Part shown: positions 1,199 to 59,083 of the stretch, one piece after another | Numbering within the stretch: the first letter of the stretch is position 1 | Layout: every line of letters starts with the position of its first letter | Source: an uncultured Thermoleophilia bacterium | GTDB taxonomy: Bacteria > Actinomycetota > Thermoleophilia > UBA2241 | Assembly: GCA_963715985.1 (NCBI GenBank) | Contig: CAVQSP010000014.1 | Coordinates: 640,001 to 704,000, forward strand | Direction: 5' to 3' | Length of the DNA stretch: 64,000 bases | Position numbers and translations under genes: made by a program | Notes under the pieces: generated by a model | What the model was told of the DNA's origin: nothing | What the model saw: only the letters and a program-made list of their open reading frames with translations | The model's database searches: none

Positions 1199-1199
<1 letters not shown>
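93..1199 (+). CDS. carA: carbamoyl-phosphate synthase small subunit
   Basis: [29 protein letters not shown] and QYHPE motifs. Confidence 0.97.
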
Positions 1200-4393
<3,194 letters not shown>

Positions 4394-4397
<4 letters not shown>

Positions 4398-39496: not shown

Positions 39497-39522
39497 CACG
39501 CTGGTGCCGAGGAGCGGCCTTT

Positions 39523-41840: not shown

Positions 41841-42109
41841 CCGACGCTGCACACACGGGGGGTGCACGTGTTCCGCCGGCTGCAGTACTGTCGTGTCCGC
41901 GGCGGTGGGATTCCGACACTGCCGTCTCCGGCCCCTATGTGCGCATCGTGCCAACGTCCTCGCACCGACGATGCCCTCCTGCACAGGACCCACTCGTCGA
42001 TGCCACGTACCGCGTCACCGGCGTGAGGTGAGGAGGTGGTGTCTCACCCGAGGTAGTTCCGCAGAGTCCGATCAGGCTTCCACAACGGTAGACCGGAAGG
42101 AGGAGCCAC

Positions 42110-43516
42110 ATGGCTGGACCTGGGACGAAAGCCCAGCGCGAGCGCATGACGGTCTTCGAGGCGTATGAGAGGGCCCGCAAGGGTCCCAAGGTGGACGAGG
42201 CGGTCTGGAACTTCGAGATCATCCCGCAGACCGCCAAGCGCCTCAAGGAGAAGTACGAGATCGAGATGGACAAGGCCGTCATGGTCCCCACCGATCCCGC
42301 GCTCATCAACAAGCTCTACAAGGCCGGTCTCGAGATGCTCGTCGAGTGCGGCGTCTACGTGATCAACACCGGCCGCGTCATCAAGTACACCGAGGAGGAG
42401 GTCCTCCTCGGCGTCGCCACCGCCCCCAAGGAGTGCATGCTCGGTGAGGGGCTCCACAGCCGGCGCATGTCCTACCGCTCCCACAAGGACACGCGCCCAC
42501 CGCTCGTCCAGGGTGGCCCCACCGGCGCCCCCTGCAGCGAGCAGTACTTCTTCCCGATCCACGAGTCCTACGTCAAGGAGGGCATCGTCGACTGCATCGT
42601 CGACGGCGTGCTCTCCACCGTGAACGGCTACAACCCCGCCCCCGACACCCCCTGGGAGGTCCTCGCCGGCCGCCAGGAGATCATGATGGTGCGCATGGCG
42701 CAGGCCAAGTGCGGCCGCGCGGGCATGGGCTTGTAGGGCCCCGAGACCACGCTGAACGCAGCCGCCACGATCTCGCAGGACTTCCCCGGCGGCATGCGGA
42801 CCACGGACAACCACGAGGTCTCGCAGCTGAATGAGTTGAAGACCGACCTAGGCGCGTTGCTCTTCACCTCTCATTACAATCTCTCTGCAGACACCGTGAT
42901 GGTCGAGCAGATGCCGATCTTCGGCGGCTTCGCCGGTGGTCTCGAGGAGACGACCATCGTCAACGTCGCGACGCATCTCAACTCGTTCGTCACGTTCGGC
43001 GGCACCTGGCATCTCGACGGTCCTGTGCACATGCGGTGGGGCATCACGACGACCAGGGAGGCCCTGGCCATCGCGGGTCACGCCATCATGGCGGTCAACT
43101 CCGTCTGGCCGCTCCTCAGCGGCAACCAGTACTACACGATGGCCGGCCCCTGCACGGTCATGTGCCTCCTGGAGACCGCCGCGCAGGCGATCACCGACAC
43201 CGCCAGCGGCCGCGAGATCATGAGCGGCGTGGCCGCCGCCAAGGGCGTCATCACCGACAAGACCACGGGCATGGAGGCGCGCTTCATGGGCGAGTGCGCG
43301 CACGCCGTCGCCGGCCTGCCCACGGAGCAGACCAACGAGATCCTCGACGCGCTGGTGAAGATGTACGAGGGCGACTACAAGACCGCCGACCAAGGCAAGT
43401 TCTTCCCCGAGTGCTACGACGTCGAGAAGGTCGTCCCGACCGACGAGTACCTCGAGGTCTACGACAAGGCCTGTGCGGCGATGAAGAGCCTGGGCGTCAA
43501 CTACAAGCTCTGGTGA
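42110..43516 (+). CDS. mtmB: monomethylamine:corrinoid methyltransferase, pyrrolysine at codon 209 (TAG 42734-42736), 468 aa
   Basis: ORFs 42110-42736 and 42794-43516 are in frame; read-through gives GRAGMGL-O-GPETTL, matching MtmB GRPGMGV-O-GPETSL. Confidence 0.95.
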
Positions 43517-43564
43517 GCGGCACCCGGTCAGCGAACACGCCGAGTTTGAGGAGGCTCTAGGCAA

Positions 43565-44212
43565 ATGGGAGAAGCTGAGTTCATCAAAGAAGCGATCGAC
43601 GCGCTGTTGACCAGCGACAAAGAGAAGGCCGTGGACGTCGCCAACCGCGCCATCGCCGCCGGCGTGGCGCCGGACAAGCTGATGGCGGACGGCTTCGTGG
43701 TCGGCATCCGCCAGCTCGGCGACAAGTTCGACGAGGGCGAGGTCTACCTGCCCGAGCTGATGCTCGCGGCGGCGGCCATGGAAGCCGCCATGGCCATCTG
43801 CAACGCGGCCCTGCCGGAGGGCAAGAGCGAGACCCGCGGCGTCGTCGTCATCGGCACCGTCGAGGGCGACGTGCACGACATCGGCAAGGCCATCGTCTGC
43901 GCCTACCTGCGCGCCAACGGCTACGAGGTCCACGACCTCGGCCGCGACGTGCCCGTGGAGGAGTTCGTCGACAAGGCCGAGGCGGTCGACGCCGACGTCA
44001 TCGGCGCCAGCGCCCTGCTCACCGCCACGATGCGCAAGCAGTCGGAGATCGTCGCCGAGCTCAAGGACCGCGGTCTCCGCGACAAGTACAAGTTCGTCGT
44101 CGGCGGCGCCCCCTGCACGCAGGAGTACGCCGACTCCATCGAGGCCGACGCCTACGCGGCCGACGCCAGCGACGGCGTCAAGAAGATCGAGGAGCTGCTG
44201 GGCGCGAAGTAA
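43565..44212 (+). CDS. mtmC: monomethylamine corrinoid protein
   Basis: YLPELM, GTVEGDVHDIGK (DxHxxG), SALLT and GGAP motifs; directly follows mtmB. Confidence 0.9.
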   Translation: MGEAEFIKEAIDALLTSDKEKAVDVANRAIAAGVAPDKLMADGFVVGIRQLGDKFDEGEVYLPELMLAAAAMEAAMAICNAALPEGKSETRGVVVIGTVEGDVHDIGKAIVCAYLRANGYEVHDLGRDVPVEEFVDKAEAVDADVIGASALLTATMRKQSEIVAELKDRGLRDKYKFVVGGAPCTQEYADSIEADAYAADASDGVKKIEELLGAK

Positions 44213-44250
44213 GTCGCCGCGCGCCCGGCAGGCCTGCCACACCTGCCGAC

Positions 44251-44287
44251 GGAGGGCGGCGCCCGCGGGAGCGGGCGCCGCCCTTCC
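44251..44287 (+). terminator. GC-rich hairpin after mtmC copy 1, without a T-tract
   Basis: AGGGCGGCGCCCGC-GGGA-GCGGGCGCCGCCCT, followed by TCCCGATTC. Confidence 0.5.
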
Positions 44288-44415
44288 CGATTCAGGAGAC
44301 ATTGTGCTGAGAGTCACGTTCACAGAGGCACCTGGGGCGGCGAGCCCGTCGCCCAAACTCGGGGAGGTAGCCGAATGACGAGAGTTTCGGTCAAGCGCAA
44401 TGGAAGGAGGTCGTT

Positions 44416-44775
44416 TTGAGCACTCCTGATGTCGACTCGATAGTCGAACAAGCACTCGAGGCTGAAGTACACGGCGGCAAGCACGACCCGCGCATCGACA
44501 GGCTCTACCGGCAGGACGTCATCACCATCTACATCTTCGTCGTGGCGTTGTGGCTCGTGCTGTGGACGGTCTTCTTCTTGGTCGCCAACCCGGTCATCAC
44601 CGACGACAAACTGCGGTGGCTCCTGATCGGCCTCGGCGTCTTCGCCTCGATCTTCAACAGCGTCGGCATGATCTCCAACACGCGGAGGCTCAAGCACGAG
44701 GCTGTGCGCTTCTACTCCCAGGATCTGTTCTGGCAGGACGAGAAGAAGCGTCGTAAGGCGGAGGGGCTCCTGTGA
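44416..44775 (+). CDS. small membrane protein (2 TM)
   Basis: AAGGAGG RBS, TTG start, two hydrophobic helices, host-like codon usage. Confidence 0.8.
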   Translation: MSTPDVDSIVEQALEAEVHGGKHDPRIDRLYRQDVITIYIFVVALWLVLWTVFFLVANPVITDDKLRWLLIGLGVFASIFNSVGMISNTRRLKHEAVRFYSQDLFWQDEKKRRKAEGLL

Positions 44776-44805
44776 GCGCGTTGCGATCCCGAAAGGAGGC
44801 TCCCG

Positions 44806-45006
44806 TTGGCTGACCAAGAGAACGAGCAGCACATCATCGGCCGGCACGTGGCCGCGAGTGAAGAGGAGTGGGTCGCCTACAAGGACTACAAGGCGCCCAC
44901 GCAGAGCAGGCTCTGGCAGATCATCGACGTGCTCTTCGTGATCATCCTCTGCTACGTCTGCCTGCTGATCCCGATCCTGCTCACCGGCAAGATGATCGTG
45001 GGGTGA
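44806..45006 (+). CDS. small membrane protein (C-terminal TM)
   Basis: AAGGAGG RBS; IIDVLFVIILCYVCLLIPILL. Confidence 0.75.
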   Translation: MADQENEQHIIGRHVAASEEEWVAYKDYKAPTQSRLWQIIDVLFVIILCYVCLLIPILLTGKMIVG

Positions 45007-45009
45007 CAG

Positions 45010-45351
45010 ATGAGACGACTGACTCTCACCCGGCTCGGTCCGGGACACAAGGCTCGTCGCGCCCTCGCACTCTTCACCCTCGTGGCTCTCTGCGTCACGC
45101 TGGTGCTGACGTGCGCAGGCGCATCTCTTGCCGCCGACGAAGGCCGGACGATCAACACGCCCGGAGGGGCGACGATCACGACGTCCGAGGGCATGGAGGC
45201 GCCGCAGCTCGACTACAAGTTCGTCTGGTGGAGCTTCATCCTCACGTTCGGGCTGCTCATCGTGTACTACGTGTGGATACTCCGCATCTCGGACAAGGAG
45301 TTCAAGAAGATCATCGACGCCCACTTCGGGCCCAAGCAGGACGGGAGGTGA
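45010..45351 (+). CDS. small membrane protein (signal-like N-terminus plus TM)
   Basis: Hydrophobic N-terminal helix; FVWWSFILTFGLLIVYYVWIL. Confidence 0.75.
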   Translation: MRRLTLTRLGPGHKARRALALFTLVALCVTLVLTCAGASLAADEGRTINTPGGATITTSEGMEAPQLDYKFVWWSFILTFGLLIVYYVWILRISDKEFKKIIDAHFGPKQDGR

Positions 45352-45356
45352 CGGGC

Positions 45357-45551
45357 ATGGCATGGGTGAACTACGTCACGTGGGCTATCGCCATCCTGCT
45401 GCTAGTGTGGCTCGTCATCGACGCCTTCCGCATCGAGACCACCTACGACGCCGAGCTTCTCGTCAGCTCCGTGGAGGGTGAGATCGAGAAGGAGATCCTC
45501 GACCACGACGAGCTCGCCCACCTCAAGGACCAGTCGAGAGGGGGCATGTGA
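45357..45551 (+). CDS. small membrane protein, 64 aa
   Basis: GGAGG RBS; MAWVNYVTWAIAILLLVWLVID; stop overlaps the permease ATG (TGATG). Confidence 0.75.
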   Translation: MAWVNYVTWAIAILLLVWLVIDAFRIETTYDAELLVSSVEGEIEKEILDHDELAHLKDQSRGGM

Positions 45552-46972
45552 TGGCGACAGACGCCGCAGCCGTGAGCGCTCAAGCCACGGCGGACGCCCC
45601 CAAACGCCTGAGCCTCCTGCGCGTCCTCGGCCCCATGCACGTGTGGGCTCTGGGCGTGGGGATCGTGCTCGTGGGCGAGTTCATGGGCTGGAACTTCACC
45701 GTGGCCAAGGGAGGCGTGTTCGGTGGCCTCGTGGCATGCTGGTTCTCCGGCATCCTCTACTCGTGCGTCGCCATGATCGACTCCGAAGTGAGCTCCACCG
45801 TGGCGTCGGCAGGCGGGCAGTACGCGCAGGCCAAGCACATCCTCGGCCCCCTTGCGGCCTTCAACATCGCCCTGTTCATCATCTTCGAGTACTGCATGCT
45901 CTCGGCCGGCGACGCGCTTGTCATCGGAGCGCTGGTCAACAGCCTCAACCCGGTGCTCAGTCCGACGCCCTTCGTGGTGCTCACCATCGCCTTCCTGGCG
46001 TGGCTGAACTACCGGGGAGTGCACACCACGCTGACGTTCAACTTCATCATCACGGCCATCGCGTTCATCACGATCCTCGTGCTGATCGTCGGCGCCCGGT
46101 TCTGGGATCCCGGCTACATCACGCAGACCAAGGAGCTGTTCGCGCAGCCTCCGGGGAGCGCTGATCCCAAGATGCCCTACGGCTGGCTCGGCATCCTCGC
46201 CGCGCTCCAGTTCGGCATCTGGTACTACCTCGGCATCGAGGGCACGTGCCAGACGGCGGAAGAATGCCGCTCGGCACCGCGGGCGCTGCCGGTGGGCACG
46301 ATGTCCGGCCTCATCACCCTGCTGATCGCCGCCACGCTCACGTGGTACATCTGCACCGCCCTCGTCAACTGGATCACCCTGGGCTCGTCTGTGTACCCGC
46401 TCTACGACGCGGCGGTCAACACCGGCAAGGACTGGTTGATGGTCACCCTGTGGATCGGCTCGCTGCTGAGCTGTCTGGCGTCGTCCAACGGGTGCATCAA
46501 CGACGCCTCGCGAGCGTGGTTCGCGATGGGGCGCGACCAGTTCATCCCGAGGTGGTTCGGCGGCGTCCACCCCCGCTACAAGACGCCGTACCGCGCCATC
46601 CTGTTCCTCGTGCCGATCATGATCGCCTTCGGCTACACCGGGCTGCTCGACCAGGTCATCACCTTCTCGATCATCTCCGGCTGCCTCATCTACTTCATCA
46701 TGCCGCTCAACATGATCCGCTTCCGTCGGCTCTACCCGATGGACTCGATCAAGCGAGGGTACGTGTCACCGTTCCATCCGCTGCCGTCGTACGTGCTGTT
46801 CCTGTTCGTGCTCCTCACGTTCCTCGCCATGTACTTCGGCTACTGGCGCAACCTCGTGGCGGCGCTGGTCTTCTACGGCATCTGTTCGATCTGGTTCGTG
46901 CTGCACCGGTACAAGTTCGTCGACCGCACCAAGCTGTACACGATGCCGTGGCCACGGCCTAAGGGCTACTGA
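45551..46972 (+). CDS. APC family permease (ethanolamine-permease-like), candidate methylamine transporter
   Basis: VWALGVGIVLVGEFMGWN, GIEG..AEE, SRAWFAMGRD and HPRYKTPY motifs; about 12 TM. Confidence 0.88.
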   Translation: MATDAAAVSAQATADAPKRLSLLRVLGPMHVWALGVGIVLVGEFMGWNFTVAKGGVFGGLVACWFSGILYSCVAMIDSEVSSTVASAGGQYAQAKHILGPLAAFNIALFIIFEYCMLSAGDALVIGALVNSLNPVLSPTPFVVLTIAFLAWLNYRGVHTTLTFNFIITAIAFITILVLIVGARFWDPGYITQTKELFAQPPGSADPKMPYGWLGILAALQFGIWYYLGIEGTCQTAEECRSAPRALPVGTMSGLITLLIAATLTWYICTALVNWITLGSSVYPLYDAAVNTGKDWLMVTLWIGSLLSCLASSNGCINDASRAWFAMGRDQFIPRWFGGVHPRYKTPYRAILFLVPIMIAFGYTGLLDQVITFSIISGCLIYFIMPLNMIRFRRLYPMDSIKRGYVSPFHPLPSYVLFLFVLLTFLAMYFGYWRNLVAALVFYGICSIWFVLHRYKFVDRTKLYTMPWPRPKGY

Positions 46973-46989
46973 CAGGAGAGGAGGACGTC

Positions 46990-47433
46990 GTGTTCGAGAC
47001 TCTGCTGGTAGCCACCGACGGCTCCAAGGCGGCTCAGAAGGCCGTCGTCTGGGCGGTCGAGTTCGCCAAGCGACACGACTCCCGGCTCATCATCTGCAAC
47101 GTGACGCCGGAAGCGCGGACGAAGCTCAGGCGCACCGAGCCCAACCCGCCGCCGGAGGGCGATGTCTCGCCCGAGGACGCCGGCGACATCGTCTCCGCCG
47201 AGGCCTTGCATAGGGCGGAGAGGCTGGCGAAGAAGGCAGGGGTGAAGTACGAGCTCGATGAGGTGTACGGCAGGAACATCGCGGCTACCATCGCCAAGGA
47301 GGCGATGGCGGTCGGCGCCGACCACATCATCATCGGGTCGACCGGGATCACCGCGCTCACCACGTGCGTGCTCGGCTCGGTCGCACAGAACGTGGTCCAC
47401 TACGCCCACTGTCCCGTGACGGTGGTCCGGTAG
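46990..47433 (+). CDS. universal stress protein
   Basis: LLVATDGS, IIIGSTG and LGSVAQNVVHYAHCPVTVVR motifs. Confidence 0.92.
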   Translation: MFETLLVATDGSKAAQKAVVWAVEFAKRHDSRLIICNVTPEARTKLRRTEPNPPPEGDVSPEDAGDIVSAEALHRAERLAKKAGVKYELDEVYGRNIAATIAKEAMAVGADHIIIGSTGITALTTCVLGSVAQNVVHYAHCPVTVVR

Positions 47434-47479
47434 ATGAACATCCGGGGCCGCAGCCGCGGCGGAGGGAGGTGACGGCGTC

Positions 47480-48148
47480 ATGGACACTGGACTCGCCGTC
47501 AGACTGGCCATCGTCGTGGCTGCGGCCCTGCTGCTGACCTACGTCTTCCTCGCCTACGTGCGGCGAGACCGCAAGAAGACCCAGCACATGCTCGACCCGT
47601 TCCTCAACGCTATCGACCACCCGCAGGTCGGACGCAGCCCTTGGGGCTACGAGTTCCTCGAGGGGTCGTTCGGCGGGCGCCCGGTGCGGGTGAGCCTGAT
47701 CCCGGACTCGCTGATCACCCGCACGTTGCCGACGCTCTGGCTGGAGGTGCGCTGGGCGCGGCCCAGCGATGCCTTCCTGTGCGTCATCACGCTGTGCAAC
47801 GGCATGGAGTACTTCGCCGACGAGGTCGACGAGGGCAGCCTGCTCGTCACGCCCAGCACGTGGCCCCAGTCTGTGCGGGTGCGCGGCAAGGGCCCGGCAA
47901 GCTCGGCCCTGGCGCGTCGTCTGAACGGCTTCGATGTCGACGCGTACAAAGACCTCAAGATGGTCTCGCTCAGCGAGACCGAGACCAAGGTGATCATGCG
48001 CTGTGCCCGTGGGGACTTGCAGCTCTACAGGGTGTTGCGCTCCGCGAGTTTCCCTGAGGATTCGGTGAAGCCGGAGCTGGTGGAAGAGACCGTCCGGGTA
48101 CTCCGTGACATCGACCGCATGCTCGAGAGCGAAGAGGAGGTCGCGTGA
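47480..48148 (+). CDS. hypothetical membrane-anchored protein
   Basis: GGAGG RBS, N-terminal TM, in operon arrangement with its neighbours. Confidence 0.75.
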   Translation: MDTGLAVRLAIVVAAALLLTYVFLAYVRRDRKKTQHMLDPFLNAIDHPQVGRSPWGYEFLEGSFGGRPVRVSLIPDSLITRTLPTLWLEVRWARPSDAFLCVITLCNGMEYFADEVDEGSLLVTPSTWPQSVRVRGKGPASSALARRLNGFDVDAYKDLKMVSLSETETKVIMRCARGDLQLYRVLRSASFPEDSVKPELVEETVRVLRDIDRMLESEEEVA

Positions 48149-48693
48149 TGGGCAGGACCCGCAGCGCCAAGCCGCAGAAGGAGGCGCCGAAGGGCGAGCT
48201 CAAGAAGCCGCGCCCGGTATGGTTCGTCACCCTCATGGCGTTCGTGCTGCCCGGCAGCGGGCAGATGTTCAACGGTGCGCCGGCGCGCGGCATCATCATG
48301 CAGTTCGGCATGGTCTTCGGCGGCTACGTCTCCTACCAGCTGACCACGCCCGAGATCTCGCCCATCGGCCGGCTCGCCGGCGGCCTGCTGGTCTGGGTCT
48401 TCTCCATCGTCGACGCCAACGGCATCGCCAACCGGCGCGTCAGGGCGTGGGCCCGCATCGAGGCGGCACAAGCCGGGAAGCCGTCGCAGAACACCGGGAG
48501 TCCGGCTCCGAGCCGGCGTGCCAAGAACGGAACGTCGGGCAAAGCCCCCAAGGGCGCCGCCCGCAAGAGGCGCGTCGACAGCGCCGCTCCACGCGGGGCC
48601 GTGGTCGCCGGCGCGGACATGGGACCCGCCTCGATCACACCCATGCCCGGGGGCGGGACCTCCGCGGCGGTAGCGGCTTCAGAGCCTCACTGA
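48145..48693 (+). CDS. hypothetical membrane protein
   Basis: AFVLPGSGQMFNG...LLVWVFSIVDA; overlaps the previous stop codon. Confidence 0.7.
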   Translation: MMGRTRSAKPQKEAPKGELKKPRPVWFVTLMAFVLPGSGQMFNGAPARGIIMQFGMVFGGYVSYQLTTPEISPIGRLAGGLLVWVFSIVDANGIANRRVRAWARIEAAQAGKPSQNTGSPAPSRRAKNGTSGKAPKGAARKRRVDSAAPRGAVVAGADMGPASITPMPGGGTSAAVAASEPH

Positions 48694-48762
48694 GGCCGCT
48701 CGCGGCCAACGTGAAGCGCGAGGCGCCCGATCGTCGACCGTGACCGGTAGGGTCCCCGCCGC

Positions 48763-49098
48763 TCACGCGAAGATGCGGCGCCCGAAGATCACCACCACGA
48801 CGCCGACCATGGTGATGGCCGCACCGATGAAGTCGTAGCGGTCGGGGGTGTTTCCGTCGATCGCCCAGCCCCACACCATCGCCCCGACGAGGAAGACACC
48901 TGCGTAGGCCGCGTACACGCGCCCGTACGCCCCCTCCGGCTGATACGTCTGGATGATGGCGTAGAAGAGCAGGGCGGCCAGGCCGACCAGAGCGAGAAAC
49001 GCCGTCCCGCCGCCCTTGAGCCAGCGCCAAAAAGCGTAGGTCCCTCCCAACTCACCGAGGGCGGCAAGGATGTAGATCGCGAAGGTCTTGACGATCAC
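48763..49098 (-). CDS. YnfA/UPF0060 family small membrane protein
   Basis: AALGELGGTY, YGRVYAAYAGVF and PDRYDFIG motifs. Confidence 0.88.
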   Translation of the reverse strand: MIVKTFAIYILAALGELGGTYAFWRWLKGGGTAFLALVGLAALLFYAIIQTYQPEGAYGRVYAAYAGVFLVGAMVWGWAIDGNTPDRYDFIGAAITMVGVVVVIFGRRIFA

Positions 49099-50054
49099 GG
49101 CGTCACCTCTCAGATGCGTGCGGGGTGGTCACATCCCCGGTGGGACGTGGTGGGACGGCTGCTTCTGGGCCGCGACCGTTCGACTGGTCGCACGATGCGT
49201 GGAGCGCGGCGCCTCTCCGTTGTCGCGGCACTCCTCAGAGACGGTCCTCCTCACGGCACCTGCGTCCCGCCGATGACCCGGCTGGGCCGGCGTCGTCAGC
49301 GTAGTGGCTGGAGAGGCGAACCTCAATCGCCGCCCGGACTGCGCGCCGAGCGGCGCCGGCTGTGCCGCCCTCAGGCGACCGACCCAGGCACTCACCGGTC
49401 CTTCGCCCGAGGTGGAGTTCAGCCCTCAGCCCTCTGCACACCCTCCTGTCTTCTGCCGGGATGGTCCCGGAGGCATCGCCGTGGCCTGGTGCCGAAGGGA
49501 GGATGACTGCTGACGGAGGCGCGATGCACATCCGCGAGAGGCGATCAGGCCAACTGCGGACGAGCGCGTATGCGAGTTGACCGCCCGGAAACCGGTCGAG
49601 ACGGTGCGGGAGCGGCGCGCCTCTCTGCGGGAACGCGACGTCGACGCCATCGTGCGGCCGGCGGGGAGCCGTTGTTGGGGCACACACGTAGCGGGGCGGG
49701 GCTCGATGCACCGAGACGGACTGGGCGCGCCAGGGCGTCCGCGGTGACGAGACCGTGTTGACGATGGAGACCGAAGAAGATGCCACGACGAAGCCGGCTG
49801 AGCTGGAGTCCGCCGGTAAGCATCACGTGCGGATCGGGAGGACCGGTGGAGCCGCGGCGAACTGGCCGATGTGACGCACGGCCACACGATCGCCGCCTGA
49901 CCGGACGGCGCCCCGTGGGGGCGCCATCCGCCTGAGAACCGCGCCATCTCGGCGGGCCGGGGCGTCGTTGGGCATGCGCTCCGGGCCAGGATGTGGCGCC
50001 TTTTCCGAGGGCGGCCGCAGAGAGCATCCGCGCCCCTGTACAAGCGGGAAGCAC

Positions 50055-50085
50055 TTGACCGGCGGCGTGGGACAACGCGTATACT
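50055..50085 (+). promoter_or_regulatory. possible sigma70-type promoter for mtmB copy 2
   Basis: TTGACC-N19-TATACT; spacing is longer than ideal. Confidence 0.4.
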
Positions 50086-50409
50086 CGTGCTCCACCGGCA
50101 CAGCGTCTTCCCGCCGGCGCGCGATGTCCTCGCCGAGCGGCGCACAAGGAGGCGCGACCCTGGTTCGTAGGCGCAGCACTGGTCCTGGGGCTTCGGACCG
50201 ATCCAGTCGGCCGGGGAGATGTGTCCCGGGCCGCCCGATGCGCGCCCGCACCGGCAGTAGCCCGACGGTGGCCCGCGTCACCGTCGCCGTCCATTCCGCA
50301 CACCATGGTCCCTTCGCGGACCAGGCTGGCCAGGAGGTGATGCCTTCCGTCCGATAGTCGGGATGCACGTCGCCAACCTAGACAAGCTAGGCACGAGAGG
50401 AGGAGCCAC

Positions 50410-51816
50410 ATGGCTGGACCTGGGACGAAAGCCCAGCGCGAGCGCATGACGGTCTTCGAGGCGTATGAGAGGGCCCGCAAGGGTCCCAAGGTGGACGAGG
50501 CGGTCTGGAACTTCGAGATCATCCCGCAGACCGCCAAGCGCCTCAAGGAGAAGTACGAGATCGAGATGGACAAGGCCGTCATGGTCCCCACCGATCCCGC
50601 GCTCATGAACAAGCTCTACAAGGCCGGTCTCGAGATGCTCGTCGAGTGCGGCGTCTACGTGATCAACACCGGCCGCGTCATCAAGTACACGGAGGAGGAG
50701 GTCCTCCTCGGCGTCGCCACCGCCCCCAAGGAGTGCATGATCGGTGAGGGGCTGCACGGCCGGCGCATGTCCTACCGCTCCCACAAGGACACGCGTCCAC
50801 CGCTCGTCCAGGGCGGCCCCACCGGGGCTCCCTGCAGCGAGCAGTACTTCTTCCCGATCCACGAGTCCTACGCCAAGGAGGGCATCGTCGACTGCATCGT
50901 CGACGGCGTGCTCTCCACCGTGAACGGCTACAACCCCGCCCCCGACACCCCCTGGGAGGTCCTCGCCGGCCGCCAGGAGATCATGATGGTGCGCATGGCG
51001 CAGGCCAAGTGCGGCCGCGCGGGCATGGGCTTGTAGGGCCCCGAGACCACGCTGAACGCAGCCGCCACGATCTCGCAGGACTTCCCCGGCGGCATGCGGA
51101 CCACGGACAACCACGAGGTCTCGCAGCTGAATGAGTTGAAGACCGACCTAGGCGCGTTGCTCTTCACCTCTCATTACAATCTCTCTGCAGACACCGTGAT
51201 GGTCGAGCAGATGCCGATCTTCGGCGGCTTCGCCGGTGGTCTCGAGGAGACGACCATCGTCAACGTCGCGACGCATCTCAACTCGTTCGTCACGTTCGGC
51301 GGCACCTGGCATCTCGACGGTCCTGTGCACATGCGGTGGGGCATCACGACGACCAGGGAGGCCCTGGCCATCGCGGGTCACGCCATCATGGCGGTCAACT
51401 CCGTCTGGCCGCTCCTCAGCGGCAACCAGTACTACACGATGGCCGGCCCCTGCACGGTCATGTGCCTCCTGGAGACCGCCGCGCAGGCGATCACCGACAC
51501 CGCCAGCGGCCGCGAGATCATGAGCGGCGTGGCCGCCGCCAAGGGCGTCATCACCGACAAGACCACGGGCATGGAGGCGCGCTTCATGGGCGAGTGCGCG
51601 CACGCCGTCGCCGGCATGCCCACGGAGCAGACCAACGAGATCCTCGACGCGCTGGTGAAGATGTACGAGGGCGACTACAAGACCGCCGACCAAGGCAAGT
51701 TCTTCCCCGAGTGCTACGACGTCGAGAAGGTCGTCCCGACCGACGAGTACCTCGAGGTCTACGACAAGGCCTGTGCGGCGATGAAGAGCCTGGGCGTCAA
51801 CTACAAGCTCTGGTGA
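50410..51816 (+). CDS. mtmB: monomethylamine:corrinoid methyltransferase copy 2, pyrrolysine at TAG 51034-51036
   Basis: Same in-frame amber and GMGL-O-GPET motif as copy 1; five amino-acid differences seen. Confidence 0.95.
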
Positions 51817-51864
51817 GCGGCACCCGGTCAGCGAACACGCCGAGTTTGAGGAGGCTCTAGGCAA

Positions 51865-52512
51865 ATGGGAGAAGCTGAGTTCATCAAAGAAGCGATCGAC
51901 GCGCTGTTGACCAGCGACAAAGAGAAGGCCGTGGACGTCGCCAACCGCGCCATCGCCGCCGGCGTGGCGCCGGACAAGCTGATGGCGGACGGCTTCGTGG
52001 TCGGCATCCGCCAGCTCGGCGACAAGTTCGACGAGGGCGAGGTCTACCTGCCCGAGCTGATGCTCGCGGCGGCGGCCATGGAAGCCGCCATGGCCATCTG
52101 CAACGCGGCCCTGCCGGAGGGCAAGAGCGAGACCCGCGGCGTCGTCGTCATCGGCACCGTCGAGGGCGACGTGCACGACATCGGCAAGGCCATCGTCTGC
52201 GCCTACCTGCGCGCCAACGGCTACGAGGTCCACGACCTCGGCCGCGACGTGCCCGTGGAGGAGTTCGTCGACAAGGCCGAGGCGGTCGACGCCGACATCA
52301 TCGGCGCCAGCGCCCTGCTCACCGCCACGATGCGCAAGCAGTCGGAGATCGTCGCCGAGCTCAAGGACCGCGGTCTCCGCGACAAGTACAAGTTCGTCGT
52401 CGGCGGCGCCCCCTGCACGCAGGAGTACGCCGACTCCATCGAGGCCGACGCCTACGCGGCCGACGCCAGCGACGGCGTCAAGAAGATCGAGGAGCTGCTG
52501 GGCGCGAAGTAA
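51865..52512 (+). CDS. mtmC: monomethylamine corrinoid protein copy 2
   Basis: DVHDIGK B12-binding motif; one V>I difference from copy 1. Confidence 0.9.
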   Translation: MGEAEFIKEAIDALLTSDKEKAVDVANRAIAAGVAPDKLMADGFVVGIRQLGDKFDEGEVYLPELMLAAAAMEAAMAICNAALPEGKSETRGVVVIGTVEGDVHDIGKAIVCAYLRANGYEVHDLGRDVPVEEFVDKAEAVDADIIGASALLTATMRKQSEIVAELKDRGLRDKYKFVVGGAPCTQEYADSIEADAYAADASDGVKKIEELLGAK

Positions 52513-52550
52513 GTCGCCGCGCGCCCGGCAGGCCTGCCACACCTGCCGAC

Positions 52551-52593
52551 GGAGGGCGGCGCCCGCGGGAGCGGGCGCCGCCCTCCTCTTTCT
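52551..52593 (+). terminator. intrinsic terminator after mtmC copy 2
   Basis: GGAGGGCGGCGCCCGC-GGGA-GCGGGCGCCGCCCTCC followed by TCTTTCT. Confidence 0.7.
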
Positions 52594-52697
52594 GGACACA
52601 TTCCTGCGGGCCCGAGGTGCGGGACGGTCGTGCGGTGGGTACCGTAACCTGTACGCGGCCTCAGCGAGCCCGATCGACCCCGAGTGGAAGGACACGA

Positions 52698-52907
52698 ATG
52701 GCGGTGATCCTGTATTCGCGGCCCGACTGCCCCTACTGCGATGCCGCGCGTCGCTACCTGGACGACCGTGGTGATCCCTACGAGGAGCGCGACATCACCG
52801 TGGACCCAGAGGCAGAGCAGGCCGTGGCGGCCATCACCGGCGGCCCGCTGACCGTACCGATCACCGTGGAGGACGGCGACGTGAGGGTCGGCTTTCCGTA
52901 CACCTGA
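52698..52907 (+). CDS. glutaredoxin-like protein
   Basis: LYSRPDCPYC, TVP and VGF motifs; GGAAGGA RBS. Confidence 0.88.
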   Translation: MAVILYSRPDCPYCDAARRYLDDRGDPYEERDITVDPEAEQAVAAITGGPLTVPITVEDGDVRVGFPYT

Positions 52908-53101
52908 GGCGGGGCGCGAGGGCGCACGCGCTGGATCTTCCAGCACGACCCCGAGCGCAGGCGCGCGTGACGCGCCACCATCCTCCGGCAATCGGCGCCG
53001 CCCATGTTCCGGAATGGCAAAAGAGATGTCGGTATGTGCGCCAGATTGGCGCATATGGAGCCTGCACCGTGACGATTCGTGAACTTCTGCACGTGCAAAC
53101 C

Positions 53102-53130
53102 TTGACTGGGCCAGCGTGCATCCATACATT
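53102..53130 (+). promoter_or_regulatory. sigma70-type promoter upstream of mtbB
   Basis: TTGACT-N17-TACATT. Confidence 0.65.
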
Positions 53131-53398
53131 GTGTCGCACACGTGAAGCCCGCAATGCCCGTACGGAGTACTTGCGGGCTTCGTGAGCGAACTAGGCCAAT
53201 GACTCCGAACGCCGGCAGCCGTATCCCGCCGTCGGCAGAGGGAGGCCCGTCCTGTGACGGCGCAGCACGCGATGCGATCCATCGAGCTGGTCTGGTCTGT
53301 GGGGGCGCTCACGCCCCAGCTGAGCCGCGCCGCCGCGCGCCCCCCGCCCGCCACTACCCTGTCTCCGCGCTTTCTCACCACAATGGAGGTGTGACGCA

Positions 53399-54800
53399 GT
53401 GAGCAAGATCTGGACCCGAATGGGTGACGGCAACGCCGTCGAGCTGACCCCAGACGAACTCCGCCAAGACATCATCGCGGCGACTGAAGACGCCGCGGAC
53501 AAGGGACACATCCCGGCCCTTGAAGAGAACGAGATCGACCACCTGTACGACCTGTTCGCGGCACCGTACCGCATCATCGGCGTCGAGCCCGGCCACGAAG
53601 TGCCGCTGACCAAGGACGAAACGGCGTGCACCCTCGTCTCCTCGCAGCTGTCGAGTGGTTCACACCTGGCGATAAGCCGCGAAGACGCGGTCGAAGTCTT
53701 CGAGCGCGTCTTCGCGTTCGACACTATGGAACTGGGCTGGATCGATTACTCGTTCAAGCCGGCGAAGCCCATGGTCTCGTTGGACCAGGTCTCCATCGAA
53801 CGCATCATGGCGACCACCGTGTTCCCGGTGCTCTACGGCGCCATGCCGAATATGGGCCTGTACTACACGCCCGACGGCCCGTACATCAACCCTGCAGACC
53901 TGCTCGGCATGATGAAGGTCGAGGAGGCGCGCGAGGAGGAGATGAAGGCCTCCGAGCTGTGCATGGAGGACATGATCTTCGTCTGCGAGCGCATGAACGA
54001 GATCGGCGCCGACGGCATCGACTTCGACACCACGGCCTCGGCCGGGTGACGCCGACTTCCTCGCGACCCTCAAGACGGTCGAGCACCTGAAGAAGACCAC
54101 CGACCTCGGCATCGAGATGGGCATGTCGGGCGAGTTCATCCTCGGCATGCACGGCGAGGTCGAGTACAACGGCACGCGACTTGCGGGCCTCTTCCCGCAC
54201 CAGCAGCTCAAGTGCGCGGAACAGGCAGGCGTCGACATCTTCGGCCCCGTGGTCAACACGAAGACCAACAAGTCCTGCGCTTGGAACGTGGCCCGCGCTG
54301 TGACCTTCGTCAAGGAGGTCTGCAAGCAGGCCACCATCCCGATCCACGCGAACGTGGGTATGGGTGTGGGCGGCACGCCGATGTTCGAGACGCCGCCGAT
54401 CGACGCTCTCAGTCGCGCGAGCGTGGCCATGGTCGAGATCGCCAAGGTCGACGGCTTGTAGGTCGGCGTGGGCGATCCCTACGGCATGTCCGTAATGCAT
54501 TCGATCGCATCCGGAATGGGTGGCATCCGCACCGCTGGAGACCTGGTGGCAAGGATGGAGCTCAATTACCGGATGAGGCTCCCCGAGGCGAAGAAGTACG
54601 TGGCCGACAAGCTCGGCATCAGCGCGTTCGACCTGTCGGACTCCACGGTCATGCGCAACCTGCGCGAGGAGCTCGACATCGGCGTCATCGAGGCGATCCC
54701 CGGCCTCTCCAAGGGGTACACCGCCAAGGCGCGTATCGCCGACCTTCTCGACATCAAGATCAACGGTGTCGAGCGGCAGAAGGCGAAGATGCCGGCCTGA
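53399..54800 (+). CDS. mtbB: dimethylamine:corrinoid methyltransferase, pyrrolysine at TAG 54459-54461; +1 frameshift at GGG 54044-54046 (probable sequencing error)
   Basis: RMGDG and [16 protein letters not shown] motifs; [12 protein letters not shown] restored by deleting one G; VDGL-O-VGVGDP matches MtbB VDGI-O-IGVGDP; repaired length about 466 aa. Confidence 0.93.
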
Positions 54801-54857
54801 TGACGCGCTCTGTCGTCCAGCAGGTTTGGCCAAATCTGACCCACGGAGGTCACAGGC

Positions 54858-55502
54858 ATGGCAAATGAAGACTTCTATGCGGACGCGGCTGCCGCTATCC
54901 GCGCGTGCGACGCCGACAAGGCGGCTCAGGTAGCGACGGACGCCCTTGCGGCCGGCGTGGCGCCTGACGACATGCTGAAGCTGGGGTTCATCCCGGGCAT
55001 CAGCAAGATGGGCGATCTCTTCGAGCGCGGCGAGGTGTTCCTCCCCGAGCTCGTCCTCGCAGCCAACGCCATGACGGCGGCCGCCGCGGTGTGCAACGCG
55101 GCTCTCCCCGAGGGCGAAGCGGAGGCGAAGGCCACCGTCGTTATCGGCACCGTCCAGGGTGACGTGCACGATATCGGCAAGACCATCGTCGTCGCCTTCC
55201 TGAGGGCGAACGGCTACGACGTGTACGACCTCGGCCGTGACATCTCGAGCGACAAGTTCATCGCTGCCGCCGAGGAGCGCAAGGCCACGGTCATCGGCAT
55301 GAGCGCTCTGCTCACCACCACCATGCGCGAGCAGACGCGCATCATCGAGGCCCTCAAGGCCGCGGGTCTGCGCGACAAGTACAAGGTCATCGTCGGCGGC
55401 GGCGCCTGCACGCAGCAGTGGGCCGACAAGATCGGCGCGGACGCCTACGCCGAAGACGCCAACGACGGCGTGCGCAAGGTCAACGAGCTGACGGGCAACT
55501 GA
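54858..55502 (+). CDS. mtbC: dimethylamine corrinoid protein
   Basis: FLPELV, GTVQGDVHDIGK and SALLTTT motifs; follows mtbB. Confidence 0.88.
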   Translation: MANEDFYADAAAAIRACDADKAAQVATDALAAGVAPDDMLKLGFIPGISKMGDLFERGEVFLPELVLAANAMTAAAAVCNAALPEGEAEAKATVVIGTVQGDVHDIGKTIVVAFLRANGYDVYDLGRDISSDKFIAAAEERKATVIGMSALLTTTMREQTRIIEALKAAGLRDKYKVIVGGGACTQQWADKIGADAYAEDANDGVRKVNELTGN

Positions 55503-55527
55503 TCCCGCGCTCGTAGAAGAGCACACC

Positions 55528-55583
55528 GGCGGCGCGGCCGGGCCTGCGAGAGCAGCCCCGGCCGCGCCGCCTCCCTCGTTCTG
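55528..55583 (+). terminator. hairpin downstream of mtbC
   Basis: GGCGGCGCGGCCGGG...CCCGGCCGCGCCGCC followed by a pyrimidine-rich run. Confidence 0.5.
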
Positions 55584-55644
55584 GGGCATTCCGTTCTGCG
55601 CGACCACTCCGATCGCCAACAGAGCCGCCAGTCCGCCTCGTCGA

Positions 55645-55872
55645 CCGGCCGAAACGGGGCAGCGGGCTGCCAACCCGGGGAGCGGACGGGGAGGCCGGCT
55701 CACACGGCGTTCACAGCCCTCTGAGGGGCCTGGAGAGGGCCGGAGGTGGGGAGAGGGCCGGCCGAAACGGGGCAGCGGGCTGCCAACCCGGGGAGCGGAC
55801 GGGGAGGCCGGCTCACACGGCGTTCACAGCCCTCTGAGGGGCCTGGAGAGGGCCGGGAGGTGGGGGAGAGGC
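55645..55872. repeat. 113-bp tandem duplication in the mtbC/mttC convergent gap
   Basis: CCGGCCGAAACGGGGCAGCGGGCTGCC... starts at 55645 and again at 55758; near-identical apart from G-run lengths. Confidence 0.92.
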
Positions 55873-55924
55873 CCCCTTTGGGCCTCGAGACCCCATAACG
55901 GCTCGGTGACGCTCGCAACCAAGA

Positions 55925-55959
55925 GGGCGCCCCGGCCGCGTGGAGCGGCCGGGGCGCCC
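55925..55959 (-). terminator. hairpin downstream of mttC
   Basis: GGGCGCCCCGGCCGC-GTGGA-GCGGCCGGGGCGCCC, followed on the minus strand by TCTTGGTT. Confidence 0.55.
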
Positions 55960-56010
55960 ATCTGCTTCAGGCGCTCATTGCCCGGGCGAGAGTCGCCCGA
56001 TGGAACGGGC

Positions 56011-56637
56011 TCAGCCCATGAGCTCCTTGCACTTCTCGACGCCGAGCGAGGCGTTGGCGCCGTAGGCGTCCGCGCCCACTTCGGCGGCCCACTCGGCCGA
56101 GACCGGGGCGCCGCCGATGATGACCTTGATCTTGTCGCGCAGGCCGGCGTCCTTGAGCGCCTGGATCGTCTCCGGCATCTTGGGGATCGTCGTCGTGAGC
56201 AGGCCGCTCATCCCGAGGATGTCGGCGTCGTGCTCCTTGCAGGCGGCGACGAGGTCGGCAGGGGTGATGCCCTTGCCGAGGTTGATGACCTCGAAGCCGG
56301 CGCCGGACAGCAGCATCGCGACGAGGTTCTTGCCGATGTCGTGCATGTCGCCCTCGACGGTGCCGATGACGACCGTGCCGAGGCTGCCGCCGCCCTCACC
56401 GAGGAGCGGCTTGATGATGTCGAGGCAGGCCTGCATGGTGCGGGCGCTGAGCAGCACCTCGGGGATGAACTTGTCGCCGCTCTTCATCTGCTCGCCGACC
56501 ACGTCCATGCCGGGGAGCAGGGCGTTGTCGAGGATCTCGCGGGCCGCGGCACCGCCGTCGACCAGCGACTGGGTCGCGGCCGTGGCGGCGTCGTTGCCGT
56601 CGATGATCATCTGCTTGAGGGACTCAAAGTCTGCCAT
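56011..56637 (-). CDS. mttC: trimethylamine corrinoid protein
   Basis: FIPEVL, GTVEGDMHDIGKN, SGLLTTT and GGAP motifs; directly downstream of mttB. Confidence 0.85.
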   Translation of the reverse strand: MADFESLKQMIIDGNDAATAATQSLVDGGAAAREILDNALLPGMDVVGEQMKSGDKFIPEVLLSARTMQACLDIIKPLLGEGGGSLGTVVIGTVEGDMHDIGKNLVAMLLSGAGFEVINLGKGITPADLVAACKEHDADILGMSGLLTTTIPKMPETIQALKDAGLRDKIKVIIGGAPVSAEWAAEVGADAYGANASLGVEKCKELMG

Positions 56638-56685
56638 AGGATCCTATGTCCTCCATGTCGTGGCTTCGTTCCGGAGCCCTGGGAT

Positions 56686-58161
56686 TCAGGCGACTCCCGC
56701 GTCCTTCTCGGATTTTACGACGATGGCCCTGATTTCGGCCACGACGTCACTCGGCAGCTCGGCCACCTTGTGGCCGGCCACCAGCTCCTTGGCCTTCTCG
56801 TTGCAGCGGGAGTACATGTCGGTGCTGCCGTCCATCTCCCACTCTTCGCGGACGCGACGGTCGATGTTGCCCGCCTTGGACTGGTGCTCACGCATCAGCT
56901 TCAGGGTGCTCATCCTCGAGAGGAAGTCCTCCTCGGACCCCACTTCGATGATCTCATCCACCATCAGCGTCGCGTCGTTCGTGGGGATGCCACGAAGGAT
57001 GAACTTACAGATTCGCGCGATATCGTTGTCCATGACGAGCGTGGCGTAGTCGATGGTGACGCCCGACTCGATCATCCCGGCTCCGTAGATCAGGTTGAGC
57101 CCTCCCAACGCTGGCAGGAGGCCGGTGATGGTCTTCTCGTGGGCGCACTGCGCGTCGCCGCCGAGCTTGGAATCGCTCTACAACCCGGCGCCGTAGGTCG
57201 GCAGGCCGTAGAAGCGGCCCATCTCTGCGACGGCGGCGCTGATCATGCCGAGCTCGGGGGTGCCGACGGTCGCCGCGGCGCGCTGCAGGTCGAAGGCGGT
57301 GGTGGAGGTGCCGTAGACGCACTTGGCGCCCTTCTCGGCGAGCTGCGCGAGGACGATGCCGCCGAGCACCTCGGCGTTGTGCGTGACCATGGTGCCGGCC
57401 AGGGTGACCGGGGCCGAGCCGCCGGACATGGCCATGGAGAGCGGCATGGCGATCTGATGGGCGCGAGCCGCCTCGATGATGCAGCCGCTGAACTCGCCCA
57501 TGAGCTTGAGCGGGCTGACCGGGCAGCTGAGGAAGAGGAGCATCGGGCGGTCGGCCAGCTTGTCGTGACCGCCGGCCACGGCGGCCGTGGCGTCGATGTG
57601 CAGGCGGGCGCCGTGGTGACCGAGCGCGAGGCTGCAGATCGGCTTCGTGGTGTTGAGCAGCGACTGCTCGATGAGGTGCGCCTCGGCGACCTCCGGCGGC
57701 ACGTCGGTGGCCGTCACGGCGATGGTGTAGACCTCGATATCGTCGAGCGCGTCGACGAGGCGGGCGAGGTCGGCGACGTCCTTCTTCGTGGTCGGGCGCA
57801 GCTTGCCGTCCCACGGATCCACGGCCTTGACGCCCTCGGCGAAGTTGGTGAAGGCGACGCGCCGGCCCTCCATGACGAGGTCCTTGTCCGGCGTACGGCC
57901 GCAGAGCGTGACCGTGGAAGGCGCCCAGCTGATGCACTCCTCGAGGACGTGCGACGGGATCCTCACCTTGCGCGTCGAGCGGTCGACCTTGCAGCCGCCG
58001 TCGGCGAACAGGTCGATCGCCTCGTCGTCCTCCACCCAGAGGCCGGCCGTCTCGAGCACCTCGACGGTGCCCCAGTGGATGGCCTGCCTCTCGTCTTCGG
58101 AGAAGACATCGATGCCGATGCCTCCCTGGTGGTTGATGCCTGACCGTTGACTTCGAATCAT
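56686..58161 (-). CDS. mttB: trimethylamine:corrinoid methyltransferase, pyrrolysine at codon 328 (TAG 57180-57178), 491 aa
   Basis: ORFs 57178-58161 and 56686-57108 are in frame; read-through gives YGAGL-O-SDSK..DAQCAHEKT..LLPAL.G.NLIYGAGM, the MttB Pyl motif; also SAPVTLAGT..HNAEVL. Confidence 0.94.
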
Positions 58162-58247
58162 TCCGCCTCCTTCTTACAGCGTTTGCAGATCGCGGTCGTG
58201 GGCGAGCCTGTGCCGCTGTGGCGCTACGCTCGCCCGCCTCTCGTCAT
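58158..58247 (-). CDS. putative amber-containing leader peptide of mttB (MTRGGRA-amber-RHSGTGSPTTAICKRCKKEAE)
   Basis: GGGAGGAGG RBS, ATG at 58247, TAG at 58226-58224, final TGA overlapping the mttB ATG (ATGA). Confidence 0.4.
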
Positions 58248-58741: not shown

Positions 58742-59083
58742 ATGAGCGAGTGGCACGTGCTGAAGGGGAGGGCTGAGACCGACCCGGTGGCGCTGGCGCG
58801 CGAGCGTGAGGTGGTGGAGTGCGAGCTCGACGGGCGCGCGTTCGTCTTCGCCTGCGAGGTCGTCCCGAACCAGTGGTCGGGCAAGGGGGTCGCGGTCATG
58901 ATGAACCTGGCGGAACACGCCGGGAGCGCCGGGGACCCCATCTGCGTCCGCGACCTGGCCGCGGCATTCGAGGACGACGAACTGCCTCAGGAACTGGATC
59001 TCGCCACGATCGTCACATGCAGGACCCGCGCCGAGGGGCTCTTCGCGAGCGCCGCCGACATGGTCCAGCGCTCAGACTCCTGA
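58742..59083 (+). CDS. hypothetical protein
   Basis: AAGGAG RBS, 113 aa, plausible codon usage; no family recognised. Confidence 0.6.
   Translation: MSEWHVLKGRAETDPVALAREREVVECELDGRAFVFACEVVPNQWSGKGVAVMMNLAEHAGSAGDPICVRDLAAAFEDDELPQELDLATIVTCRTRAEGLFASAADMVQRSDS

Follow-up and report, generated by a model that had tools for sequence, protein, structure and literature searches.

The methylamine metabolism of Methanosarcina barkeri relies on three non-homologous methyltransferase families, which are known together with their corrinoid proteins as MtmB/MtmC, MtbB/MtbC and MttB/MttC (1NTH/1TV2, 7XCL-7XCN). The same three families are encoded in the stretch of DNA analysed here, a window of 64,000 nucleotides corresponding to positions 640001-704000 of contig C14 in the genome bin (G000) of an uncultured bacterium. 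As in M. barkeri, each gene has a single UAG at the equivalent catalytic position (Pyl202 of MtmB and Pyl334 of MttB, as judged from the alignment; Pyl, pyrrolysine), the corrinoid partners show the DxHxxG motif, and sequences of the PYLIS type follow the UAG codons of mtbB and mttB. The MtmB proteins of the window and of M. barkeri share about 55-60% identity, as estimated by eye from the alignment. In contrast to M. barkeri, the residue preceding Pyl is Leu instead of Val (MtmB) or Ser (MttB), mttB precedes mttC in the gene order, and the host is a bacterium with an acs (acetyl-CoA synthase) cluster of the Wood-Ljungdahl pathway, which makes tetrahydrofolate rather than coenzyme M the probable methyl acceptor. 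Pyl systems with separate pylSn and pylSc genes accompanied by pylBCD and pylT, as found in this host, are likewise present in Desulfitobacterium hafniense, Acetohalobium arabaticum, Bilophila and others, and a split into PylSn and PylSc is described for all bacterial pyrrolysyl-tRNA synthetases (PylRS) in the accessible part of one survey (PMC9630628).

We assign a probability of roughly 88% to the reading that the region represents an island on the chromosome of an uncultured, high-GC, Thermoleophilia-related actinobacterium, which encodes Pyl-dependent MttB, MtbB and two MtmB proteins and is linked to the Wood-Ljungdahl pathway. This reading draws on the presence of one UAG per gene at the catalytic Pyl position and on a genome encoding everything required for the synthesis of Pyl and the charging of tRNA-Pyl(CUA).

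Methyltransferase genes and their corrinoid partners

The genes of the island and the associated RNA motifs are arranged as follows.

42110-43516, plus strand: mtmB1, monomethylamine:corrinoid methyltransferase; TAG at 42734-42736 (codon 209), after TTG
43565-44212, plus strand: mtmC1, corrinoid protein; DVHDIG at residue 102; TIGR02370 229 bits (cut-off 215)
50410-51816, plus strand: mtmB2, monomethylamine:corrinoid methyltransferase; TAG at 51034-51036 (codon 209)
51865-52512, plus strand: mtmC2, corrinoid protein; DVHDIG
53399-54800, plus strand: mtbB, dimethylamine:corrinoid methyltransferase; TAG at 54459-54461, after TTG; split by a 1-nt insertion
54459-54558, plus strand: match to Rfam PYLIS_2 that begins at the mtbB TAG; 79.4 bits versus a gathering score of 36
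54858-55502, plus strand: mtbC, corrinoid protein; DVHDIG; above the TIGR02370 cut-off of 215
56011-56637, minus strand: mttC, corrinoid protein; DMHDIG at residue 97; TIGR02370 171 bits, below the cut-off of 215
56686-58161, minus strand: mttB, trimethylamine:corrinoid methyltransferase; TAG at 57178-57180 (codon 328), after TTG
57078-57180, minus strand: match to Rfam PYLIS_3 that begins at the mttB TAG; 49.8 bits versus a gathering score of 38

When TAG is read through, mtmB1, mtmB2 and mttB contain a single TAG apiece and terminate with TGA. The translations of mtmB1 and mtmB2 match the Pfam profile MtmB (PF05369) over positions 1-449 of 450, with 664 and 667 bits, and that of mttB reaches 291 bits with Pfam MTTB and 611.4 bits with NCBIfam TIGR02369 (trimeth_pyl; cut-off 525). 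The match of mtbB is distributed over two frames, with positions 5-215 of Pfam Dimeth_Pyl (PF09505) in one and 215-461 in the next, corresponding to 191.5 and 335.6 bits with TIGR02368. An earlier note on this DNA, made from the sequence without database searches, had described four methyltransferase genes of these families with one in-frame TAG each, which was interpreted as a Pyl codon, and with DxHxxG corrinoid-protein genes next to them. The family assignments and the single TAG hold for all four genes, but mtbB is additionally frameshifted, which that note had missed; the further points are borne out by the alignments and domain searches described below.

In the alignments, codon 209 of the mtmB genes corresponds to residue 202 of M. 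barkeri MtmB1 (1tv2), and codon 328 of mttB to the X at position 334 of 7xcl, both of which are established Pyl sites; a search for a solved MtbB structure to align with found none. Among 80 aligned MtmB loci from bacteria, archaea and the window, 78 carry TAG in the Pyl column, while the remaining two look frame-shifted or gapped there. As judged from these alignments and from the starts of the two PYLIS matches, the placement of the TAG codons at the Pyl position is not due to chance. The part of mtmB downstream of the TAG is under purifying selection, because synonymous differences exceed non-synonymous ones in six of seven alignment-based orthologue comparisons (42-54 versus 16-32 codons; 54 versus 16 between mtmB1 and its orthologue at locus L116). 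The seventh comparison, with locus L122, yields 44 synonymous versus 62 non-synonymous differences, and this locus shows a length anomaly.

All four corrinoid-protein genes adjoining the methyltransferase genes encode both B12-binding domains and the D-x-H-x-x-G motif. The two mtmB-mtmC cassettes (42098-44303 and 50398-52602) form a duplicate of 2206 nt with 99.2% identity that begins 12 nt ahead of the ATG, and the closest relative (G056) apparently contains one mtmB-mtmC copy at this locus, as judged from the coordinates. The double copy may represent a recent duplication or an assembly artefact.

Pyrrolysine machinery, methyl transfer and distribution of the trait

A search of the remaining host genome located pylB, pylC, pylD, the gene for tRNA-Pyl(CUA), pylSn and pylSc on contig C13 (locus L006). 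PylSc, PylSn, PylC and PylD score 316, 124, 318 and 199.5 bits against cut-offs of 178, 51, 248 and 150, respectively, and pylB matches positions 5-252 and 247-347 of TIGR03910 in two different frames. The tRNA-Pyl gene directly follows pylD and shows a one-base spacer between acceptor and D stem and a D loop of 5 nt; it is the only tRNA-Pyl called by ARAGORN among the 53 tRNAs of the genome, while the general Rfam models gave no match at this locus at E values up to 0.01. The pylSc gene is encoded on the other strand at a distance of about 2.8 kb from pylSn, and the interval contains one radical-SAM gene and one corrinoid-protein gene. ARAGORN also calls one tRNA-Sec(UCA), which is encoded on the same contig (C13:139538-139635), and the host therefore probably uses selenocysteine besides pyrrolysine.

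The genome contains 23 TAG-bearing methylamine methyltransferase genes, as found by tblastn with the proteins of the window. TAG occupies the Pyl column in all 11 MtbB loci, in 10 of the 53 MttB-like matches covering this column and in two of seven MtmB-like matches, the others being non-Pyl paralogues. The five MtmB-like paralogues without TAG are 26-34% identical, have Val, Asn or a gap at the Pyl column and are located on contigs C3, C11 and C14, mostly beside corrinoid genes (e.g., C11:185062-186423, C11:311478-312839, C3:48518-49867 and C14:103360-104757); we know of no characterised non-Pyl homologue of MtmB. Another paralogue, an MttB encoded at C3:63079-64503 directly after a TAG-bearing mttB, is 45% identical to the mttB product of the window and contains Leu in place of Pyl. 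A genome-wide screen yielded 63 in-frame TAGs flanked on either side by strong coding signal; about 44 of them lie outside the methylamine methyltransferase genes and may reflect either adjacent genes or further Pyl proteins.

In the proposed pathway, UAG would be read as Pyl in mtmB, mtbB and mttB, and MttB, MtbB and MtmB would act on trimethylamine, dimethylamine and monomethylamine, respectively, each with its own corrinoid protein. The methyl groups would pass from the amines to the Co(I) forms of the corrinoid proteins, from which a second methyltransferase encoded elsewhere would move them to tetrahydrofolate, and they would then enter the Wood-Ljungdahl pathway via the acs cluster, whereas activases of the RACo/RamA type would keep the corrinoid reduced. 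Candidate permeases and a putative two-component regulator are encoded alongside the methyltransferase genes. The transfer to tetrahydrofolate and the entry into the Wood-Ljungdahl pathway are suggested by the acs cluster, the activase genes and the example of known bacterial methylotrophs. A search for Wood-Ljungdahl genes identified the acs cluster on contig C11, comprising CO dehydrogenase (CODH, 586 bits), AcsB (in two frames), AcsD, AcsC, AcsV and AcsE, and two genes of the RACo (corrinoid-activase) family are found on C11 and C7. Profile searches between 37 and 64 kb of the window detected neither a methylcorrinoid:tetrahydrofolate or methylcorrinoid:coenzyme M methyltransferase nor a corrinoid activase. 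The earlier description of the island as complete was therefore overstated, because the second methyltransferase and the activase lie outside the window.

A view on related genomes indicates that the Pyl trait is a property of the lineage rather than a binning artefact. PylSc is encoded in 23 of 24 other genomes of the genus and in 83 of 401 genomes of a class-wide sample, in which it is found in 73 of 79 members of the host's family, in 9 of 61 of a second family and in none of 260 from ten other families. MtbB is present in 52 of 54 genomes of the genus, and exactly one TAG occurs in each of the 150 MtbB matches listed for it (309 further matches lie outside this list); in two genomes (G007 and G013), PylS and MtbB are encoded on the same contig. 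The eight closest MtmB loci are 83-91% identical and come from bins labelled Thermoleophilia or actinobacterium, followed by loci from Firmicutes, Coriobacteriales and Candidatus Adiutrix at 60-64% and from archaea at 46-56%. The sequencing runs containing the mtbB of the window derive from wetland metagenomes and metatranscriptomes.

The broken mtbB frame and the integrity of the contig

The frame of mtbB is interrupted by one extra base near 54042-54047 (GCC GGG TGA), with the break at position 215 of the Pfam profile, and the gene in the window thus fails to give a full-length match to TIGR02368 or PF09505 in a single frame even when the UAG is disregarded. The extra base is absent from all ten orthologues of other species. 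It is also absent from assembled contigs of three of the four public sequencing runs (X1, X2, X15 and X16) that were compared over 52600-58200, all of which have zero cover at 55592-55965. At 54046/54047, all contigs that cover the site in the DNA run X1 (depth 14.9/14.9) and in the RNA libraries X15 (8.42/8.42) and X16 (13.3/13.3) are shorter by one letter. Because the orthologues and the contigs of three runs agree in lacking it, the insertion is most likely a consensus error of the assembly, and the natural mtbB very probably has a full-length single open frame apart from the UAG.

Breaks of this kind are frequent in the host genome, where 13 of 96 methyltransferase and corrinoid loci, and likewise pylB and acsB, are split between frames. 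Partial profile matches or split frames were also noticed for carB, gmk, rimO and a gene resembling trimethylamine N-oxide (TMAO) permeases, the full set including pylB and acsB being located at 1199-4397, 6711-7187, 31881-32987 and 60754-62190 of the window, at 3818-5009 of L006 and at 5500-10043 of L195. As judged from the many partial or split genes, single-base indels seem to be frequent in this assembly.

The best-surviving alternative to an assembly error is a real frameshift, which would turn this mtbB into a strain-specific pseudogene and leave dimethylamine demethylation to the other paralogues. The extra base is, after all, present in the assembled sequence, run X2 yields no contig without it at its depth of 2.8, and the loss of one copy would be tolerable because ten further mtbB loci carry TAG at the Pyl column. 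We nevertheless consider it unlikely, since near-identical contigs without the base exist in the three other runs (that of X1 differs at 10 other letters over 1455 nt), none of the ten orthologues contains it, and the splitting of the essential single-copy genes pylB and acsB together with 13 of 96 loci fits a pattern of consensus errors.

Several points weigh against the interpretation of the region as a functional Pyl-dependent island. The decoding of UAG as Pyl is inferred here from sequence, not from the protein level. Two wetland metatranscriptome runs, each from a different study, contain contigs 95-99% identical to mtbB, mtbC, mttC and mttB, but contigs of RNA libraries can contain DNA, and their presence there does not show transcription. 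Both pylB and mtbB are frameshifted in the assembly, the read check covered the break in mtbB only, and the shallow run X2 shows no deletion at that site; if the two breaks were real, the strain would be unable to make Pyl or to use dimethylamine. The second methyltransferase is represented only by candidates of the uroporphyrinogen decarboxylase (URO-D) family and pterin-binding candidates elsewhere in the genome. Finally, TAG is not depleted as a stop codon, and an unregulated decoding as Pyl would therefore lengthen many proteins.

It may further be argued that the in-frame TAGs are true stops in truncated or decayed genes, or that the island was misjoined to this contig from a Firmicute or an archaeon. 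TAG indeed serves as an ordinary stop in the host, terminating 326 of 1755 long open reading frames, the nearest MtmB sequences outside the lineage come from Firmicutes (at the 60-64% identity given above), and the bin, which consists of 22 contigs with 4.35 Mb and 70% GC, has an estimated contamination of about 7.3% at an estimated completeness of about 88.8%. However, these readings are at odds with purifying selection after the TAG, with profile matches spanning it over their full length, with its conservation in 78 of 80 MtmB loci and with the full set of pyl genes. They are further at odds with the base composition, since the GC content at third codon positions (GC3) of the island genes is 0.87-0.97, similar to the flanking genes, even though their overall GC is slightly lower (0.64-0.68 versus 0.67-0.74). 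They are also at odds with the gene order beside recA-recX, which is kept on single contigs in at least two other species of the genus: recA-recX-regulators-mtmB in G056 and recA-recX-mtmBC in G006. The contig is therefore not chimeric at recX, the junction at which chimerism had been considered before, and either version appears very improbable. The host itself is actinobacterial as judged from its RecA, which falls into a clade of 12 rows with a support of 96, comprising Actinomycetota bins labelled Thermoleophilia, Thermoleophilaceae or Gaiellaceae, with the nearest row at 82% identity. The apparent actinobacterial affiliation and the host-like codon usage proposed in the earlier note are thus both supported.

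A programmed +1 frameshift of the prfB type at GCC GGG UGA C in mtbB can be dismissed as hardly credible. In its favour, the shift-prone run closes with an in-frame UGA that has a C behind it, and slippage by +1 would return to the conserved frame exactly at profile position 215. However, the extra base is found in none of the ten orthologues, and it is lacking in contigs from DNA and RNA libraries, its absence being one of sequence and not merely of decoding.

With the island placed on the host chromosome, its surroundings can be described. The first 37 kb of the window contain ordinary chromosomal genes, namely carA, carB, pyrK, pyrD, gmk, coaBC, htpX, nusA, infB, rbfA, ribF, pnp, dapB, dapA, rnj, ftsK, rimO, pgsA, cinA, recA and recX. 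The region beyond 37 kb begins with three minus-strand genes, encoding a permease, a response regulator of the NarL type and a histidine kinase with a GAF domain, and continues with the methylamine genes. The features accompanying the latter are listed below.

37245-38864, minus strand: permease-like gene of the APC (amino acid/polyamine/organocation) family, left flank; Pfam AA_permease_2, E 1.8e-14
38861-39631, minus strand: NarL/LuxR-type response regulator, possibly regulating the island; NCBIfam response-regulator models, E ~1e-49
39523-41724, minus strand: GAF-domain sensor histidine kinase; Pfam GAF, HisKA_3, HATPase_c
44416-45351, plus strand: three small predicted membrane-protein reading frames sharing one frame, with TGA stops between them and individual starts
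45548-46972, plus strand: member of the APC permease family most similar to ethanolamine permease and a candidate importer of methylamines; Pfam AA_permease; TIGR00908 209 bits, below the cut-off of 382
46990-47433, plus strand: universal stress protein; Pfam Usp, E 6.6e-30
52617-52907, plus strand: glutaredoxin-like reading frame; Pfam Glutaredoxin, E 1.2e-14
55645-55868, no strand assigned: tandem pair of 111-nt repeats (95% alike) located between the convergent genes mtbC and mttC
59072-59953, minus strand: PAS-domain protein, right flank; assigned by profile matches
60754-62190, plus strand: APC transporter closest to TMAO permease; NF053774 571 bits (cut-off 690), positions 135-518 of 520

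The three small reading frames at 44416-45351 have no Pfam match, and a GAAAGGAGG ribosome-binding site lies ahead of the second. The TGAs at 44773 and 45004 were considered as selenocysteine codons and rejected, as they separate three reading frames with starts of their own. The TMAO-permease-like gene lies 2.6 kb from mttB and lacks the N-terminal 134 profile positions in frame.

Stop codon usage, codon context and relation to known systems

Of the 1755 long reading frames with strong coding signal, 326 (19%) end with TAG, 1373 with TGA and 56 with TAA. The codon preceding the 23 Pyl TAGs of the host is strongly biased, with TTG in 17 cases, GCG and CAG in two each, and ATG and TTC in one each, so that Leu at this position is encoded by TTG in 17 of 17 cases, although TTG accounts for just 2.6% of the 64,287 Leu codons in the long reading frames. 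The four sites of the window, each consisting of this codon and the TAG, are given below.

42731-42736: codon and Pyl TAG of mtmB1
51031-51036: codon and Pyl TAG of mtmB2
54456-54461: codon and Pyl TAG of mtbB
57178-57183: codon and Pyl TAG of mttB

Leu codons before the TAG of the 326 TAG-ended reading frames are CTG (16), CTC (9) and TTG (13), and all 13 cases of TTG-TAG are the methyltransferase genes themselves. The 11 mtbB paralogues show TTG in 10 of 10 cases in the column before Pyl, compared with CTC 60, CTG 36, CTT 3 and TTG 1 in their other conserved Leu columns taken together. The same preference extends to other members of the lineage: TTG precedes Pyl in all 21 mtbB rows and 8 mtmB rows from other species of the genus (some places having been fetched twice), and in g18, a second genus of the same family, all 29 Leu rows have TTG or TTA (MtbB, 18 TTG and 8 TTA; MttB, 2 TTG and 1 TTA), the other 16 rows containing Tyr TAC (7) or Ala GCG (9). 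In g61, a genus of the second family, mtbB has TTA in 11 of 11 cases, a few of which may be double-counted because of overlapping loci. Outside these lineages, CTT and CTC do precede the mtmB TAG, with CTG in none of 78 loci.

Two simple causes of the bias were considered and rejected. A structural one does not apply because this codon takes part in no base pair in the RNAalifold consensus folds of 11 mtbB and 10 mttB paralogues, and avoidance of CTAG would bar CTC but not CTG, which moreover precedes TAG at 16 ordinary stops. A second conserved TTG, 24 codons past the mttB UAG, is accounted for by a hairpin (GCG UUG GCA ... GCC AAC) about 70 nt after the UAG and inside the PYLIS_3 match, which is predicted from the 10 paralogues and shows one compensatory change, the sole paralogue with CUG having a matching CAG on the other arm.

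The TTG/TTA pattern is common to three non-homologous families and three genera, while neighbouring synonymous sites have turned over; the paralogues are kin, and the codon counts therefore overstate their independence. We tentatively raise the possibility, which we would rather doubt than assert, that the codon before the Pyl UAG forms part of a decoding signal in these high-GC actinobacteria, where a tRNA-Leu(CAA/UAA) in the P site might favour Pyl-tRNA over release factor 1. If this were true, the preceding codon would serve as a sequence cue for targeted Pyl insertion, and the TTR cue would let the cell retain TAG as the stop for about one-fifth of its genes. The available part of an article from 2025 states that the mechanism of targeted Pyl insertion is not known (PMC12626013), and a preceding-codon rule was not met with in a limited literature search that included this part, so that the context looks new. 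The pattern offers a simple, testable handle on the choice between UAG as Pyl and as stop.

The occurrence of Pyl in Actinobacteria, which the earlier note had implied to be novel, is already in print. The accessible text of two reports mentions two Actinobacteria among 81 bacterial genomes with PylRS (PMC9630628) and Actinobacteriota bins from a thawing permafrost mire that express Pyl-encoding mttB and mtbB (PMC10805028), which belong to the same phylum and share the trait of the host described here. In these portions, the two reports name mttB and mtbB only (mtmB has no occurrence in that of PMC10805028) and do not treat the pyl genes, the gene number per genome, the stop codon usage or the codon context of the lineage; a literature search combining Thermoleophilia and pyrrolysine found nothing relevant. 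The methylamine genes are real and the Pyl trait has been reported for the group before; what merits further work is how far the trait extends, together with the TTG/TTA context.

In wetlands, the non-competitive substrates of methylotrophic methanogens are mainly methylamines. An actinobacterial family that is widespread in soils and wetlands and has some two dozen Pyl-dependent methylamine methyltransferase genes per genome, together with a Wood-Ljungdahl cluster, would compete for them, and such a bacterial methylamine sink would steer carbon away from methane. For annotation, it matters that gene callers split Pyl genes at the TAG and that assembly indels split them further.

As in other bacterial Pyl systems, TAG remains a common stop codon in the host, which suggests that Pyl decoding is regulated and makes the lineage a natural case of Pyl decoding beside a frequent TAG stop; in Acetohalobium arabaticum, the decoding reportedly depends on the carbon source. 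In contrast to the Pyl systems of Firmicutes and Deltaproteobacteria, the one described here belongs to a high-GC member of the Actinomycetota with a very large set of 23 TAG-bearing paralogues, and it differs from other bacterial systems in the position of pylSc, which is set apart from pylSn by about 2.8 kb and oriented in the opposite direction.

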